Source: an uncultured Calditrichaceae bacterium (GTDB lineage Bacteria > Calditrichota > Calditrichia > RBG-13-44-9). Taken from it: 64,000 nt of DNA. Within the stretch, counting starts at the first letter, position 1. Every line of letters begins with the position of its first letter. Location: positions 6,855 through 70,854 of the forward strand of contig CAZUZS010000016.1 of NCBI GenBank assembly GCA_964624795.1, given 5' to 3'. The notes below the pieces were generated by a model, which did no database searches, was not told the DNA's origin, and worked only from the letters and a program-made list of their open reading frames with translations. The position numbers and the translations under genes are program-made. Below, piece after piece: positions 43,073-48,447 of the stretch.

Positions 43073-43811
43073 TTGCACCCTCAATTAATTTTTTACTGAT
43101 AACGACCTCATTTTCATCTTCAAATTTGTCAAATATCGCCATATCTACCTTCCCATCGTAAACAATTGTACCGGATTTCAACATCAGCAAGCGATCTCCG
43201 ATTGTATTAAAATGTTGAATGATGTGTGTAACAATAAGGGCAGTGTGATTCAGACTTTTTTGAAGAGCATAAATTAAATCCACCACCCTTTTGGATGTCA
43301 CCGGATCCAGCCCAGCAGTGGGTTCGTCGTAAAGCAAAATTTGAGGATTAGCAGCAATAGCCCGGGCAATGGCTACCCGCTTTTTCATTCCACCGCTCAG
43401 TTCTGCCGGATAATAGTTCAAGAAATTTTCCATTCCCAATAGGCTCATAATTTCCTCCACCCGCTGCTTTACTTTTTTGTCGGAGAGCCTTAGATTCTCT
43501 CTGAGAAAAAAACCGACGTTTTCCCCAATTGTGAGAGAATCGAACAATGCGCCGTCCTGAAAGACCAACCCGCACTTAAACCGGATATTATTCATTTCGT
43601 TTTCAGAAATATCCGAAATATCTTTCTCAAAGACCTTTATTGTGCCGCTTGTTGGCCAGATTAATCGCAAAATCAATTTTAATATGGTGGTCTTACCGGC
43701 TCCGCTGCTGCCCACCAATAAAACAGTTTCATTTTGGTTCAGCTTAAAGGTCAAATCGTCCAGCACCTTACGCTGGTTTAGTATTTTTGTAACATTCCGG
43801 AACTCGATCAA
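43056..43811 (-). CDS. mlaF: MlaF-type ABC ATP-binding protein
   Basis: GSSGAGKT, FQDGALFDSL, LSGGMKKRV and LYDEPTAGLDP motifs. Confidence 0.9.
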   Translation of the reverse strand: MIEFRNVTKILNQRKVLDDLTFKLNQNETVLLVGSSGAGKTTILKLILRLIWPTSGTIKVFEKDISDISENEMNNIRFKCGLVFQDGALFDSLTIGENVGFFLRENLRLSDKKVKQRVEEIMSLLGMENFLNYYPAELSGGMKKRVAIARAIAANPQILLYDEPTAGLDPVTSKRVVDLIYALQKSLNHTALIVTHIIQHFNTIGDRLLMLKSGTIVYDGKVDMAIFDKFEDENEVVISKKLIEGANGDFK

Positions 43812-44614
43812 TGCCTCACCCCTATTACAGAGAGCAGAATTTTGGTTAGGAGGAAATCCAATATCAGGATGCCTATTGAGTTAGTCACCACCGTTTTAGT
43901 TGTGGATTGCCCCAACTCCTCTGCCCCGCCATGAGTTGTATACCCTAAATAGGCGCTATTTATGCCAATGAAAAGGCCATAGAAAATGGGCTTAATAATG
44001 CCCACCAACAAATCCCCAACAAACAAGACATCACGGGCAGCCAACCAGAAAAATTTCGGGTCCACCCCTTGCCACAAAACAACAGCAAACCAGCCGGCGA
44101 TAATTCCCATCACATCGGCAATAATTGTTAAAGGCGACATCACCAGTAGTGAAGCAAAAACACGAGGGACAATCAGACGTTTGATTGGATCGGTGCCGAA
44201 AGCTCGCAATGCATCAATTTGTTCGGTAAGCACCATATTTCCGATTTCCGAAGAAATCCGGGCACCGGTTCTGCCAGCCAGTATAAGCCCGACAACGATA
44301 GGGCCAATTTCCCGGATGATGGCCACTGAGATAATGCTGCCCATGGCAGTTTTAGCGCCGAACGGGGCCAACTCGGTTGCCCATTCCAGGGCTAGCGCCA
44401 TGCTCACAAATACTGAAGAAAAGATAACGAGGGGCAGGGCTTGATTTCCCAAAACATAAATTTGCTTGAAGGTCTCGCCGGGATATTTGAAAATATAATG
44501 AGAATTCAGAATGGATTTTGAAAAGAAATTAATCCAATTATAAAAGCCGAGGCCCCTCCGGAAGAGAAAGCTCTTCCGATATTTCAGGGTGATTTCTTTT
44601 GCAAACTTGGCCAT
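43808..44614 (-). CDS. mlaE: MlaE-type ABC permease
   Basis: REIGP, AGRTG..ISSEIG.M..TEQIDAL, PRV and GGAEELGQSTT..VV motifs. Confidence 0.9.
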   Translation of the reverse strand: MAKFAKEITLKYRKSFLFRRGLGFYNWINFFSKSILNSHYIFKYPGETFKQIYVLGNQALPLVIFSSVFVSMALALEWATELAPFGAKTAMGSIISVAIIREIGPIVVGLILAGRTGARISSEIGNMVLTEQIDALRAFGTDPIKRLIVPRVFASLLVMSPLTIIADVMGIIAGWFAVVLWQGVDPKFFWLAARDVLFVGDLLVGIIKPIFYGLFIGINSAYLGYTTHGGAEELGQSTTKTVVTNSIGILILDFLLTKILLSVIGVRH

Positions 44615-44856
44615 ATCAGCTAAAATCCCCGGATAATTTAGATTTTGCCATCTTTTGTTTCAGTTCATCAAATATTGCCGAACTCCGAAAAGCCCCTTGA
44701 CAAGCGACGCACCTGAATAATTAATGACCCGCGGGGCAAGCTATTCGCTGGATGGCCATCGGAAAATGTCCGCAAACGACAAATATTTGAGCCGGCAAAA
44801 ACAAGAAATTGTTGCCCTACTTTGGGCCGCTTATCGGTCAGAGCAAATTCTCATCT

Positions 44857-45375
44857 TTATTGTTTCTTTCCCAACCAGGGCACATTTGCATAAATTGGAA
44901 TTCCCTTCGAGATCCACTGGTAATATGTCAGAATAGCTAACATCTCCTTGCTGTCTGGAGCCATAGGCTTGCCTTTCAGGGCACCCTTGAGACATGCATT
45001 GGTCTGCATTACCAGATCCACCGTCCCATTCGCTCTCTTTTTAAATTTCGGAAATACCGCCGCTACTCCTACCAGCGGAAGTGCCTGTTCATCCATTCCG
45101 GCGTTTTTATGGCAGGTGCTACAATTCATATCATTTCCCACGTATTCTTTCGCGTACTCCTGGGTATTTTGGACAATATTGTAGCCCATCATCACCATAT
45201 CTTTGATTTCCGCGGGTGCATCCTGCGGCTTTGGTGGACTAAATTTTAGCGTGCTTTCTGTTGCTTGATCCTGTGCTTTCCCGCCTGAAAAAAGGAATAA
45301 AGAAGATAACAGTATTCCCATTATGAGTATGACTCTCGCCGAAAAAGGATTAAAAAACGATAGCAGCTTTTTCAT
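44857..45375 (-). CDS. Monoheme c-type cytochrome resembling the N-terminal (heme 1) domain of TsdA
   Basis: Signal peptide; YVGNDMNCSTCH; downstream Cys in QTNACLKGALKG; DSKEMLAILTYYQWISKG; ends after PWLG. Confidence 0.75.
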   Translation of the reverse strand: MKKLLSFFNPFSARVILIMGILLSSLFLFSGGKAQDQATESTLKFSPPKPQDAPAEIKDMVMMGYNIVQNTQEYAKEYVGNDMNCSTCHKNAGMDEQALPLVGVAAVFPKFKKRANGTVDLVMQTNACLKGALKGKPMAPDSKEMLAILTYYQWISKGIPIYANVPWLGKKQ

Positions 45376-45540: not shown

Positions 45541-46086
45541 TCAGTCCGTCATAAGGGCATAGCCCTTTAACTGGAATGTGGGCAATACAACTTGAGCCGA
45601 AAGCGCCACTGTTATATCGGCATTTACCCAATTTTCCTGGTAATTGAAATCGGCAAGCGACTGCCCGCAGACAAAAAGCTGAACTCCGGCCTTTTTCAAC
45701 TGACTGATAATATTCGTATTGGGATTATCCTTGCCGGTTTTTTCTTTGTAAATATCATTATTCAGAACAATTGAAGTGGCATCGGAATGGATTATAACTA
45801 CCAGCTTCATCTGGGCCGGCTGTACTCCGGCCGTTGCGAATACATTGATAAATCTTGCTACATGCCAGAGTGCCGCATTAATGCCATCTGAGTTTTCTGT
45901 CGATTTCTTTACATCAAAAATCACCCTGTATTCAAGATCTTTATCGGGCTGGATTGCTGCTTCAGGCAATGGATGCGCCTTTCCGTAATCCTTAATTACC
46001 GGGTGCACCCATTCCTGGGATGATGAATTACTTGCGCCAGCCGAAAGAAGCAAAACCACTATGAATAAAAGCCACGGATTTCTCAT
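45541..46086 (-). CDS. Periplasmic DsrE/DsrF-like family protein
   Basis: Signal peptide; VIFDV, LVVIIHS and AGVQLFVCGQS with the conserved Cys. Start at MRNPW behind GGAGG (track start 46146). Confidence 0.8.
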   Translation of the reverse strand: MRNPWLLFIVVLLLSAGASNSSSQEWVHPVIKDYGKAHPLPEAAIQPDKDLEYRVIFDVKKSTENSDGINAALWHVARFINVFATAGVQPAQMKLVVIIHSDATSIVLNNDIYKEKTGKDNPNTNIISQLKKAGVQLFVCGQSLADFNYQENWVNADITVALSAQVVLPTFQLKGYALMTD

Positions 46087-46190: not shown

Positions 46191-46688
46191 TTATTTGGTT
46201 TTTTCCTGCGAAGCATACTCCCGCAAGTATTCCAGTATCGCCCTCGCCTGCTCTTCCGATATTCCCAGGCTGGGCATGGGAATGTGATACTGAGAAATCA
46301 TTTTTTTGACATTCTCATCTTTTTGCTCCATTTCCGAAGTGTTTATTATCATGTTCATGATAAACTCCGGAGTTCTCTGGTTCACCACGTCGCCCAGCGG
46401 TGGCCCTACCACTTTGTTGTTCATGCTGTGGCAGGAAGTGCAGGTGCTGTTGAACACGCGTTTCCCTTCTGCTGCGAGCTTGGGATCGATCGGCCCCAAT
46501 TTCAGTTCCTTAACCGGGCCGAATCCCTTGTCCTCGCTTTGCGCACTATCTTTTTGTGGATCCTGAGCTTTCTTTTGGATCGTCTTGCTGGTGTTTTCTG
46601 TGGCAGCCTTTTGATCCTGGTCTGCCTGGCCGAAAACAGTTGCAGAAAACAATCCAATGAGTATGACTACAACAAATGAATATTTCAT
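46191..46688 (-). CDS. Class I monoheme cytochrome c
   Basis: Signal peptide; CTSCH; VGPPL; probable Met ligand in YHIPMP. Confidence 0.88.
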   Translation of the reverse strand: MKYSFVVVILIGLFSATVFGQADQDQKAATENTSKTIQKKAQDPQKDSAQSEDKGFGPVKELKLGPIDPKLAAEGKRVFNSTCTSCHSMNNKVVGPPLGDVVNQRTPEFIMNMIINTSEMEQKDENVKKMISQYHIPMPSLGISEEQARAILEYLREYASQEKTK

Positions 46689-46803: not shown

Positions 46804-47574
46804 TCACTGCGCTACGACCAACTGGTTGTTCACACTTATAGCATCAGTTCCGAATTGCACAAGGTCTGCAGCGTGTCCTCTGGCAAACTCCGAAGTGACC
46901 ACACCTTCCAGAATAACTCTCCCATTGTCCACAATAATATGAATGGGCGGGCTGGTGTTATCTGCATAGTTCTCGAATGCCGGGTCGTTGTAGATCAGGC
47001 GTGCCGCCTGTGCCCGGATCTGGTCGTCGGTGCTGGAAATTGGAAGAACCGTGATGTCGTTGATCACCTTTTTCACTCCGGCAGCTTTTGCCGCCTCCTG
47101 CCCAAATTCCGGTTTGTGCCAGGGAACATAGACCCAGCCTTTCAACGTGACATTTCCCGAATCGGCCTCCACCACAACCCAATCGAAGATGCTGTAAAAA
47201 ATATGTTTTTGAAATTCCTTTATAACGTTATCAGCTACCTGTTGGTTTGTGGCGTTCGGATTCTTAACCACCAAATTATCCACAATCTTATACGATTCCT
47301 CGACCTGGTGGGCATCTTTCTCTGCTTGCTGCTTTTGTTCCAGGGTACCAACAGTACCGTTGAGGGTGATTGTGTTATTGGAAACCGTTACTTGCACATT
47401 GTCATTTTCGAGTATGTGCTGCATCCTTAGTTTGTGTTCGAGAACGATTTGTATTGCTTTGTTTGTTGATTGCTCGTTCTCTTGCGCCGACAACCCGGAT
47501 GGGTATGAGAACAGCCCCAAACCAATTGCTGCCAGAAATAGCGCAAATACGCCGTTCCGAATTTTGCTGGTCAT
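46804..47574 (-). CDS. Periplasmic BON-domain protein (three BON repeats), copy 1
   Basis: Signal peptide; three V.V..G.VTL.G.V repeats. Confidence 0.85.
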   Translation of the reverse strand: MTSKIRNGVFALFLAAIGLGLFSYPSGLSAQENEQSTNKAIQIVLEHKLRMQHILENDNVQVTVSNNTITLNGTVGTLEQKQQAEKDAHQVEESYKIVDNLVVKNPNATNQQVADNVIKEFQKHIFYSIFDWVVVEADSGNVTLKGWVYVPWHKPEFGQEAAKAAGVKKVINDITVLPISSTDDQIRAQAARLIYNDPAFENYADNTSPPIHIIVDNGRVILEGVVTSEFARGHAADLVQFGTDAISVNNQLVVAQ

Positions 47575-47673
47575 GACCTCTTTCCTCCCCTAATATTTCT
47601 TACTCTTCGTCTTGCCATAACGACCCGCACCCGTCAAACCGGTTTCTTGCTGTCGCTATAGCGTCAATAGATT

Positions 47674-48447
47674 TTATTTATTCAATATTTTGAGCTCGTT
47701 GTCCACCGAATATGCGTCGGTGTGCAAGCTGATGAGATTTTCCGCCAGATCACTGTCAGACTGCGACTTAACGACTCCTTCGAGCACCACATTTCCGTCC
47801 CGGACGATTATATGAATGGACGGAACCAGTTCGTAGGCGTAAGGCTCGAACACCGGGTTGTCGTAGATTAATCTCGCCGCATGGATTCTTATTTGATCGT
47901 CGAAGCTCGATTTTGGCAGAACGATGAGACTATCGGCCACGGCTCTCACTCCCGGTACTTTTTGCGCCTGACTGACAAATTCGCTTTTGTGCCAGGGCTC
48001 GTAAACCCACCCGTTCAGGGTCACATTACCGTTGTCTGAAGAAACTGTCACCCAATCGAAGATGCTGTAGAAAACCCTGCGCTGCAAAGCAGCGACAACA
48101 CTATCGGTGAGCTGCTGGTTGGTCATATTCATCGCTTTGATTACGAGCTGATTGTTAACACGGTAACTTTCTTCGGCCGCGGCCGCATCTCTTCCGGCCT
48201 GAATTTTTGCCCCAATCGATTGCACTGTTCCCGACAGCGTGATGATCCTGTCTTTCACGGAAACAGTGATATCGTTATTCTTCAATATGCGCTGCTTGCT
48301 CAGTTTATTTTTCACCACACTGATTATGGTATTTGCCGGAAGCTCATTTTCGCCCTGGCTTCTTCCCGATTCGGGAAATGCGAGAATCACCAGAGCGAAA
48401 AAAGCCAATAAATAGCTGACGATTCTTATTTGATATTCTCTTTTCAT
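47674..48447 (-). CDS. Periplasmic BON-domain protein (three BON repeats), copy 2
   Basis: Same layout as copy 1; shares FYSIFDWV, PWHK.EF, DDQIR..AARLIY and IHIIV..G.V.LEGVV. Confidence 0.85.
   Translation of the reverse strand: MKREYQIRIVSYLLAFFALVILAFPESGRSQGENELPANTIISVVKNKLSKQRILKNNDITVSVKDRIITLSGTVQSIGAKIQAGRDAAAAEESYRVNNQLVIKAMNMTNQQLTDSVVAALQRRVFYSIFDWVTVSSDNGNVTLNGWVYEPWHKSEFVSQAQKVPGVRAVADSLIVLPKSSFDDQIRIHAARLIYDNPVFEPYAYELVPSIHIIVRDGNVVLEGVVKSQSDSDLAENLISLHTDAYSVDNELKILNK

Follow-up and report, generated by a model that had tools for sequence, protein, structure and literature searches.

A selected, single-haem catalytic domain of the TsdA/SoxA family, predicted to be exported, is encoded beside a DsrE3A-like protein in Calditrichia

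In a 64,000-nucleotide stretch of DNA from an uncultured Calditrichaceae bacterium (hereafter the window; GenBank assembly GCA_964624795.1, contig CAZUZS010000016.1, positions 6,855 to 70,854), a minus-strand gene encodes a 172-amino-acid protein, here called TsdA-N, that corresponds to the haem-1 catalytic domain of thiosulfate dehydrogenase (TsdA) and of SoxA standing on its own. The host is a Calditrichia bacterium of sulfidic sediments. A sequence-only reading had described the gene as encoding a single-domain TsdA-like cytochrome with altered active-site residues, and this description proved accurate, although it left the strand unstated. The gene and its relevant parts are given below, with residues compared to those of A. 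vinosum TsdA (AvTsdA) in precursor numbering.

44857..45375, minus strand: TsdA-N gene, an open reading frame (ORF) of 172 aa for a stand-alone TsdA/SoxA-type haem-1 catalytic domain cytochrome
45271..45375, minus strand: N-terminal export segment, residues 1 to ~35, with a basic n-region and the hydrophobic core VILIMGILLSSLFLF, from sequence
45109..45123, minus strand: haem-binding motif C85-S-T-C-H89, the sole CxxCH of TsdA-N
45034..45036, minus strand: Arg114, retained counterpart of substrate-binding AvTsdA Arg109 (Arg or Lys), by alignment
45004..45006, minus strand: Gln124, in place of AvTsdA Arg119, by alignment
44992..44994, minus strand: Cys128 (TGT), counterpart of haem-ligating AvTsdA Cys123 (Cys96 of the mature protein)
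44980..44982, minus strand: Ala132, in place of AvTsdA Ser127, by alignment
44974..44976, minus strand: Lys134, where all 54 dihaem homologues have Asn
44727..44741, minus strand: terminator-like hairpin ~115 nt past the TsdA-N stop, from a consensus scan in which promoter and terminator counts were at shuffle level

The ORF begins with an ATG preceded at a distance of 4 nt by a GGAGG Shine-Dalgarno sequence and ends with a TAA stop codon. The hairpin beyond the stop weakly suggests that TsdA-N is the last gene of its transcription unit; no RNA-seq run containing the gene was found when one was looked for. The encoded protein consists of the export segment, a low-complexity linker and a single domain at residues ~45-170. 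The attachment of c-type haem requires export, and residues 1 to ~35 are predicted to serve as either a signal peptide or a signal anchor, with a helix at residues 12-22 that is modelled at low predicted local distance difference test (pLDDT) values by AlphaFold2 (AF2).

Several comparisons place the domain within the TsdA/SoxA family, in agreement with the earlier assignment of a stand-alone haem-1 domain that ends at PWLGKKQ. The Pfam model PF21342 (SoxA/TsdA cytochrome c domain) matches residues 78-161 with 44.1 bits against a cut-off of 27 (E = 2.1e-11), and the best solved relative is AvTsdA (4wq7), whose residues 22-133 are aligned by HMMER with an E value of 5.6e-13. An AF2 model built on 56 homologues has a pLDDT above 93 over residues 41-170, and a Foldseek search with this model returns the N-terminal domain of TsdA first (4wqd/4v2k/4wq7; root-mean-square deviation 1.8 A over 124-127 columns), followed by TsdBA and then SoxA. 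In addition to the haem-binding motif, of which C85, C88 and H89 are invariant in the 56 homologues, TsdA-N carries 'YVGNDMNCSTCH' and 'QTNACLKGALKGKPMAPDSKEMLAILTYYQW', and its C-terminus lies only 5 residues past the PWL of the terminal PWLGKKQ. His89 is the predicted proximal haem ligand.

In AvTsdA, the active site comprises the ligand Cys123, Arg109, Arg119 and Ser127, along with Gly221 and Arg224, which are contributed by the electron-transfer domain (Grabarczyk et al., PMC4423706). Arg119 is reported to be invariant in TsdA and SoxA, and Ser127 to be invariant in TsdA (PMC4423706). The alignment between TsdA-N and AvTsdA is gap-free between 'FPKFKKRANGTVDLVMQTNACLKGALKGKPM' and 'FPQYSARHGRLITLEQRIGDCFERSLNGRAL' and therefore across the entire pocket, which permits each of these residues to be mapped. 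Cys128 falls on the ligand Cys, whose role is established for AvTsdA (PMC4423706), and is invariant in all 56 homologues, so that the ligand Cys is kept as had been claimed. The substrate arginines, which the sequence-only reading had proposed to map in this way, have met different fates: the counterpart of Arg109 is kept as Arg114, and that of Arg119 has become Gln124.

The sequence surrounding the ligand, which reads 'rigdCferslng' in AvTsdA, is 'qtnaClkgalkg' in TsdA-N. The position of Arg119 holds Arg in 42 of 54 dihaem homologues, but Gln in the window and in two related single-domain proteins (P0001 and L009), which also share Ala at the position of Ser127 and, with TsdA-N, Lys at position 134. 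The previously noted alteration of the pocket is thus conserved beyond the window. Besides Lys134, the signature of the single-domain clade includes Leu or Ile at position 129, where 53 of the 54 dihaem homologues have Phe, and Gly131, where 53 of 54 have Arg or Lys. In total, five positions that are at least 90% conserved among the 54 dihaem homologues are changed in the single-domain clade (Leu83, Phe90, Ser100, Phe129 and Asn134); the Phe90 position, occupied by Lys, Ala or Val in that clade, adjoins the His ligand, and the Phe129 position adjoins the Cys ligand. The segment QTN.C..GALKGKP is nearly identical in two Calditrichia lineages whose proteins are only 60% identical overall, indicating that the remodelled pocket is itself under constraint. 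Gly221, Arg224 and the Lys/Met-ligated haem 2 are lost from TsdA-N together with the electron-transfer domain.

Almost all homologues are dihaem proteins of ~280 aa, and for this reason a truncation of TsdA-N had to be excluded. The six frames of positions 43800-44870, downstream of the gene, are free of CxxCH, and tblastn searches of the window and of an orthologous locus (L001) with seven TsdA haem-2 domains gave only noise past the stop. As a positive control, the same tblastn search detects a haem-2 remnant (E = 1e-20 to 4e-26) behind a frameshifted homologue (P0077/L082). These results bear out the earlier statement that the gene is not the product of a simple frameshift. A search for intact homologues of about 170 aa, which had been suggested as a check, recovered 177-aa orthologues ending in PWLGKKAGN on two Logan contigs (P0001; L001, L002) and in a Calditrichia metagenome-assembled genome (L009). 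These are 58-61% identical to TsdA-N, and the MlaE encoded by the adjoining gene is 83% identical. The ORF is intact and has a common end point in three genomes. It follows that the homologues are not all dihaem, although only one small Calditrichia clade escapes that pattern.

The orthologues also carry the mark of selection. When L001 is compared with L009, the ratio of nonsynonymous to synonymous substitution rates (dN/dS) is 0.076 overall, and within the mature domain it falls to 0.017/0.55 = 0.03. The TsdA-N locus is present on contigs of independent salt-marsh and marine-sediment metagenomes, two independent metagenome contigs span the stop codon without insertions or deletions, and the mature-domain variants listed for these contigs are at third codon positions. 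A truncated pseudogene or assembly artefact might have been suspected from the near-universal dihaem architecture of the homologues and from the frameshifted copies known in databases (P0007/P0054, P0077), but this reading is rejected because there is no haem-2 remnant where the control reveals one, the orthologues are intact with a shared end point, dN/dS is low (0.03-0.08) and the stop is reproduced in independent runs. Purifying selection has maintained TsdA-N in two or more Calditrichia lineages, which come from salt-marsh and marine sediments. It is a selected, single-haem, isolated catalytic domain of the TsdA/SoxA family, predicted to be exported and to have a His89/Cys128-type haem site.

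In the comparison of L001:7503-8036 with L009:5926-6459, the TsdA-N genes differ with a dS of 0.52, and the flanking DsrE-like and mlaE genes with a dS of only ~0.07. This elevation, confined to TsdA-N, suggests either that recombination has replaced the allele or that a locally divergent allele is present.

When 100 homologues were placed in a tree by their N-domains, TsdA-N, P0001 and L009 fell into one clade (Shimodaira-Hasegawa-like approximate likelihood-ratio support 99) that is nested among dihaem TsdA-like proteins, which indicates that the electron-transfer domain was lost once. The nearest group, with moderate support of 85, consists of dihaem proteins of 250-262 aa in which the Arg119 position is taken by Met, Leu, Val or His and the Ser127 position by Tyr; where the contigs allow it to be seen, their genes form part of nuo and Rieske/cytochrome b operons. 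No further stand-alone TsdA-domain lineages came to light when 1.8 billion representatives were searched exhaustively with HMMER and Joint Genome Institute metagenomes were scanned.

Several apparent single-domain forms did not withstand scrutiny. P0077, a 209-aa protein with one haem whose gene lies downstream of a cytochrome c gene, was considered as an independent stand-alone lineage and rejected, as its haem-2 remnant lies just downstream and out of frame, and P0067, P0084, P0089 and other short matches resemble fragments or frameshifts that keep the canonical R..CF.RS.NG motif. More generally, frameshifted dihaem genes pass as 'monohaem' TsdA-like entries in databases (P0007/P0054, corresponding to L039/L065, and P0077, corresponding to L082). 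At L082 the haem-2 domain is located just downstream in another frame, and the C-terminal tails of P0007 and P0054 look out-of-frame. The frameshifted genes of L039/L065 and L082 are useful negative examples when true single-domain forms are sought.

Two TsdA-like arrangements were observed in respiratory-chain settings. In L031-L033:6001-6789, dihaem genes with an altered pocket (no Arg119, and Tyr for Ser127) occur within a nuo (complex I) operon beside a hemerythrin-domain gene. At L034:2617-5934, a 1105-aa cytochrome b/dihaem cytochrome c protein encoded beside a Rieske gene bears, as a C-terminal fusion, a complete TsdA with both domains and the canonical RTNQCFERSLNG.

The genes upstream of TsdA-N in the window include the following features.

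45541..46086, minus strand: exported DsrE3A-like protein, 181 aa, with a predicted signal peptide, directly upstream of TsdA-N (PF02635, 43.7 bits against a cut-off of 22.7)
45667..45669, minus strand: Cys140 of the DsrE-like protein (V-C-G-Q-S/A-L), its sole invariant Cys (19 of 19), at a strand-to-helix junction in the AF2 model
46191..46688, minus strand: monohaem class I cytochrome c, 165 aa, with a predicted signal peptide, two genes upstream of TsdA-N (PF00034, E = 6.7e-11)
46428..46442, minus strand: haem motif C83-T-S-C-H87 of the cytochrome c, read from sequence
46804..48447 (46804-47574 and 47674-48447), minus strand: two tandem triple-BON proteins, which precede the trio in the window and in L001 and provide syntenic context only

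In both Calditrichia lineages, TsdA-N is the last gene of a trio that also encodes the monohaem cytochrome c and the exported DsrE3A-like protein, and the most informative context of TsdA-N is its recurrent pairing with the latter, plus a separate cytochrome c. The exported DsrE-like proteins form a small family of 18 clusters at 90% identity, in which all 19 members examined have a signal-peptide-like start and share one invariant Cys and one invariant His. The AF2 model of the protein from the window (pLDDT 87) has a DsrE fold, with Foldseek matches to 1l1s, 3mc3 (DsrE3A), 2pd2, 2qs7, 2hy5 and 2d1p, among them MTH1491, DsrEFH and TusBCD. A profile search aligns Cys140 with the first Cys of 'YVCVQSLKDMC' in the DsrE3A of S. 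solfataricus (3mc3). In Metallosphaera cuprina DsrE3A, Cys93 and Cys101 are S-thiosulfonated by tetrathionate, and the C-x7-C spacing leads us to infer that Cys140 is probably equivalent to Cys93 of that protein.

The association of such proteins with TsdA extends beyond Calditrichia trios to unrelated lineages. In L003, L004, L006/L007 and L036 an exported DsrE-like gene lies one to four genes from a TsdA-domain gene. Such a gene is also found at 9 of 43 TsdA-centred metagenome loci, in five of which (L045, L047, L049, L056 and L070) no gene was called between the two. The TsdA partners at these other loci carry the canonical RTNDCFERSMNG motif. DsrE-like genes also occur in a context lacking TsdA (L008), and contigs L035 and L037 end too early to tell. 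The recurrent periplasmic set in which TsdA is encoded with an SBP_bac_11 binding protein and an exported DsrE3A-like protein is apparently undescribed. In the searchable open-access literature, we encountered neither a one-domain TsdA/SoxA protein nor an exported protein of the DsrE type as a partner of TsdA.

The composition of these sets varies. At L003, L006/L007 and L036, the DsrE-like and SBP_bac_11 genes are followed by a TsdA fused C-terminally to a CCP/MauG dihaem peroxidase domain, giving proteins of 596-663 aa with 4 haems. At L004, the order is DsrE-like protein, sulfur oxygenase reductase (SOR), Pyr_redox_2 protein, SBP_bac_11 and TsdA. The SBP_bac_11 proteins of these sets (L003, L004, L006/L007, L036 and several of L044-L056) are weakly similar to CysP, Sbp and ModA.

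At two of the loci with adjacent genes (L056:3393-3431 and L045:803-841), an otherwise complete dihaem TsdA encoded directly downstream of the exported DsrE-like gene has an in-frame TGA exactly at the codon of the haem-ligand Cys (M-R-T-N-D-[TGA]-F-E-R-S-M-N-G). The dN/dS values of the two genes are 0.107/1.09 before the TGA and 0.109/0.89 after it, and a conserved hairpin is present ~19 nt downstream of the TGA. The nearest database relatives, at 79-83% identity, have Cys at this position, and the database fragments P0112 and P0140 stop exactly ahead of it. No Rfam match to a selenocysteine insertion sequence was obtained in these TGA-containing relatives. The TGA probably encodes a natural selenocysteine haem ligand, for which these genes are candidates. 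No report of a selenocysteine haem ligand was found in the searchable literature; a 2026 paper on MccSep concerns a Cys-ligated haem with a separate selenocysteine. A likely selenocysteine at the haem-ligand position may hold independent interest for haem chemistry.

The cytochrome c two genes upstream of TsdA-N is closest to that of Rhodothermus marinus (PDB 3cp5, E = 7.6e-27). The possibility that it represents a detached TsdA haem-2 domain was rejected, given this close relative and a likeness to haem 2 that is confined to 28 residues around the CxxCH. In L001 and L009 the cytochrome c gene is duplicated, and each copy is behind a gene for a porin-like protein of ~445 aa. These paralogous proteins (L001:2653-3990, L001:4711-6042 and L009:3125-4462), located upstream of the cassette, have a predicted signal peptide and carry a single CxxCH (ARQTNL.CN.CHT) near the N-terminus, and their body resembles a beta-barrel and ends in LAWLNF, an architecture resembling that of Cyc2-like porin-cytochromes. 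They have no Pfam or NCBIfam match, and genes of this kind were sought in the window and are absent from it. Proteins of ~440 aa encoded beside the sister-clade TsdA-like genes were considered as equivalents and rejected, as they have no similarity to the L001 porin-cytochrome-like proteins and no CxxCH. No SoxYZ is encoded among the neighbouring genes scanned.

Comparison with characterized systems helps to frame the possible function of the trio. TsdA-N is homologous to the N-terminal catalytic domain of TsdA as known from A. vinosum (4wq7/4v2k) and Campylobacter jejuni, with which it shares the CxxCH His, the ligand Cys, the counterpart of Arg109 and a predicted periplasmic location. It differs in having no haem-2 domain and in its mature size, which is ~135 aa rather than the ~240 aa of TsdA. 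Its resemblance to the SoxA subunit of SoxAX (Rhodovulum sulfidophilum 1h31, Paracoccus 2c1d and the monohaem SoxA types) includes the catalytic fold and a predicted Cys-ligated haem, as well as an electron-transfer haem on a separate polypeptide, an active site that is not closed by a second domain and, encoded by a neighbouring gene, a small protein with a single reactive-type Cys as a candidate carrier. Unlike SoxA, TsdA-N scores only 37.2 bits against the cut-off of 110 for NCBIfam TIGR04484 (thiosulf_SoxA), with only the C-terminal catalytic part of the model matching, and it has neither the extra N-terminal SoxA domain nor the SoxA-invariant Arg residues. Likewise, the nearby cytochrome c is not a SoxX by its score (18.7 bits against a cut-off of 61 for TIGR04485), and the candidate carrier differs from SoxYZ in having a DsrE fold.

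The carrier candidate in turn resembles the DsrE3A of the DsrE3A/TusA thiosulfonate-transfer system of M. cuprina (homologue SSO1125, 3mc3) in its fold and in the alignment of its invariant Cys with the first of the S-thiosulfonated pair. In contrast to DsrE3A, it has a single Cys and an N-terminal extension of ~50 aa, lacks TusA or Hdr-like neighbours and pairs with TsdA-domain cytochromes. Moreover, DsrEFH, TusBCD and DsrE3A are cytoplasmic, whereas the family encoded beside TsdA is predicted to be exported by a signal peptide. That the TsdA catalytic unit can have a c-type cytochrome of its own as a partner, encoded next to it or fused with it, is already known from TsdB and TsdBA (Marichromatium purpuratum, 5lo9). 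However, TsdB is a dihaem protein that takes electrons from haem 2 of a complete TsdA, and the monohaem candidate partner described here would need to bind the catalytic domain directly.

Our preferred, though tentative, interpretation is that TsdA-N works in the manner of SoxA rather than of TsdA, with Cys140 of the DsrE-like protein as the thiol and with electrons transferred in trans. According to this proposal, a thiol, most likely that of Cys140, would be joined through an S-S bond to a small sulfur anion, or parted from it, at the Cys-ligated haem, the anion being thiosulfate or a species of the sulfane or polysulfide type, so that a Cys-S-thiosulfonate or persulfide would be made or consumed. 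The two electrons would pass singly to or from a separate cytochrome, for which the Rhodothermus-type cytochrome c encoded two genes upstream is the obvious candidate. The electron-transfer domain of TsdA intrudes into the active site and makes it smaller than that of SoxA, which must admit a SoxY peptide (PMC4423706). Loss of this domain would leave the Cys face of the haem open as in SoxA, and could thereby make room for a larger co-substrate, carried on a protein, where TsdA takes a second free thiosulfate.

The pocket substitutions may be viewed in the same light. In AvTsdA, the R119A change raises the Km for thiosulfate 20-80 fold and lowers kcat 2-7 fold, and S127A raises this Km 5-20 fold, with both variants still turning over (PMC4423706). 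This makes chemistry at the Cys of TsdA-N possible but tight binding of free thiosulfate unlikely. The replacement of Arg119 by Gln and of Ser127 by Ala should weaken the binding of free thiosulfate, as would fit a protein-borne co-substrate. The arrangement as a whole suggests that TsdA-N, the DsrE-like protein and the cytochrome c constitute a minimal, previously undescribed periplasmic sulfur-transfer system, for which the sulfidic sediment inhabited by the host would be a fitting setting.

Several observations weigh against this proposal. As Arg119 is reported to be invariant in SoxA as well as in TsdA, its loss also argues against SoxA-like chemistry. The DsrE-like neighbours found elsewhere accompany canonical dihaem TsdA proteins, and the pairing alone thus does not imply direct protein-thiol chemistry. 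Because each cytochrome c copy of L001 and L009 follows a porin-cytochrome-like gene, the cytochrome may serve another pathway. The synteny of the two Calditrichia lineages reaches housekeeping genes, such that local gene order within this clade is weak evidence. Lastly, the tentative sister clade (support 85), which lacks Arg119 and resides in respiratory-chain operons, hints at plain electron transfer.

This last observation leads to the alternative that TsdA-N is a non-catalytic, low-potential electron carrier of the periplasm that has lost its sulfur chemistry and operates, for example, in an extracellular or respiratory chain. The loss of residues regarded as catalytic, the operons (nuo and Rieske/cytochrome b) that house the genes of the tentative sister clade and the position of the L001/L009 cassette behind two porin-cytochrome-like genes, each with a cytochrome c, would all be in keeping with such a role. 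We nevertheless consider it unlikely, as nothing else in the protein is as well conserved in both lineages as the ligand Cys and its surrounding segment, and the recurrent pairing with a Cys-bearing DsrE-like protein would be left unexplained. Furthermore, it is generally known, and in line with a published account (PMC9562282), that His/Cys haems are very negative in potential and are rarely simple carriers.

Somewhat less probable is a split TsdA, in which TsdA-N would still act as a thiosulfate dehydrogenase or tetrathionate reductase on free substrate, with the role of haem 2 assumed in trans by the upstream or another cytochrome and with the DsrE-like protein handling only the product, as archaeal DsrE3A does. 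Retention of the Cys ligand, the His and the Arg109 counterpart, the residual activity of the AvTsdA R119A and S127A variants, the known occurrence of partner cytochromes beside tsdA (TsdB in TsdBA, 5lo9) and the presence of DsrE-like genes next to canonical TsdA elsewhere are all compatible with this possibility. On the other hand, the combined replacement of Arg119 by Gln and Ser127 by Ala predicts a very high Km for thiosulfate, the backbone contact of Gly221 from domain 2 is gone, the upstream cytochrome is no homologue of haem 2, and five more near-invariant positions around both axial ligands have changed.

Of the roles put forward in the sequence-only reading, that of an enzyme with a different substrate, such as polysulfide or persulfide, may apply to TsdA-N; the other was that of a sensor. 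In such a sensor, ligand switching at the Cys-ligated haem would report sulfide, polysulfide or the redox state to a signalling partner in the periplasm. Cys-ligated haems that switch ligands are generally known to act as sensors in other proteins, and the small, single-domain form of TsdA-N would suit such a function, but TsdA-N has no output domain, and no kinase, cyclase, chemoreceptor, transcription factor or other regulator is encoded adjacent to it in the window or in L001/L009, which renders this role very improbable. The truncated pseudogene or assembly artefact discussed above has the least claim of all, its probability being close to negligible.

If TsdA-N does work with the DsrE-like protein in the SoxA-like manner that we tentatively favour, a broader and more doubtful proposal can be put forward. 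In many anaerobes, exported DsrE3A-like proteins might work with Cys-haem cytochromes of the TsdA family as unrecognised periplasmic carriers of sulfur in thiosulfonate or persulfide form. The Calditrichia trio would then be a minimal form, in which a SoxA analogue of one domain and one haem would conjugate sulfur directly onto the Cys of the DsrE-like protein, with all electron transfer taking place in trans. This would amount to a second, independently evolved carrier route, apart from that of SoxAX-SoxYZ.

TsdA and SoxAX serve as the model systems for cysteine-ligated haem catalysis. TsdA-N bears on the questions of how a haem of very negative potential drives the two-electron oxidation of thiosulfate and what part the second haem plays. 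A form with one domain and one haem, maintained by natural selection, would be the smallest member of the family and a clean object for spectroscopy, electrochemistry and structural work. Should the exported DsrE-like protein prove to be the co-substrate, a small orphan family that travels with TsdA genes would gain a function, and a new periplasmic sulfur-carrier route would be added to those of sediment bacteria, the drivers of cryptic sulfur cycling.

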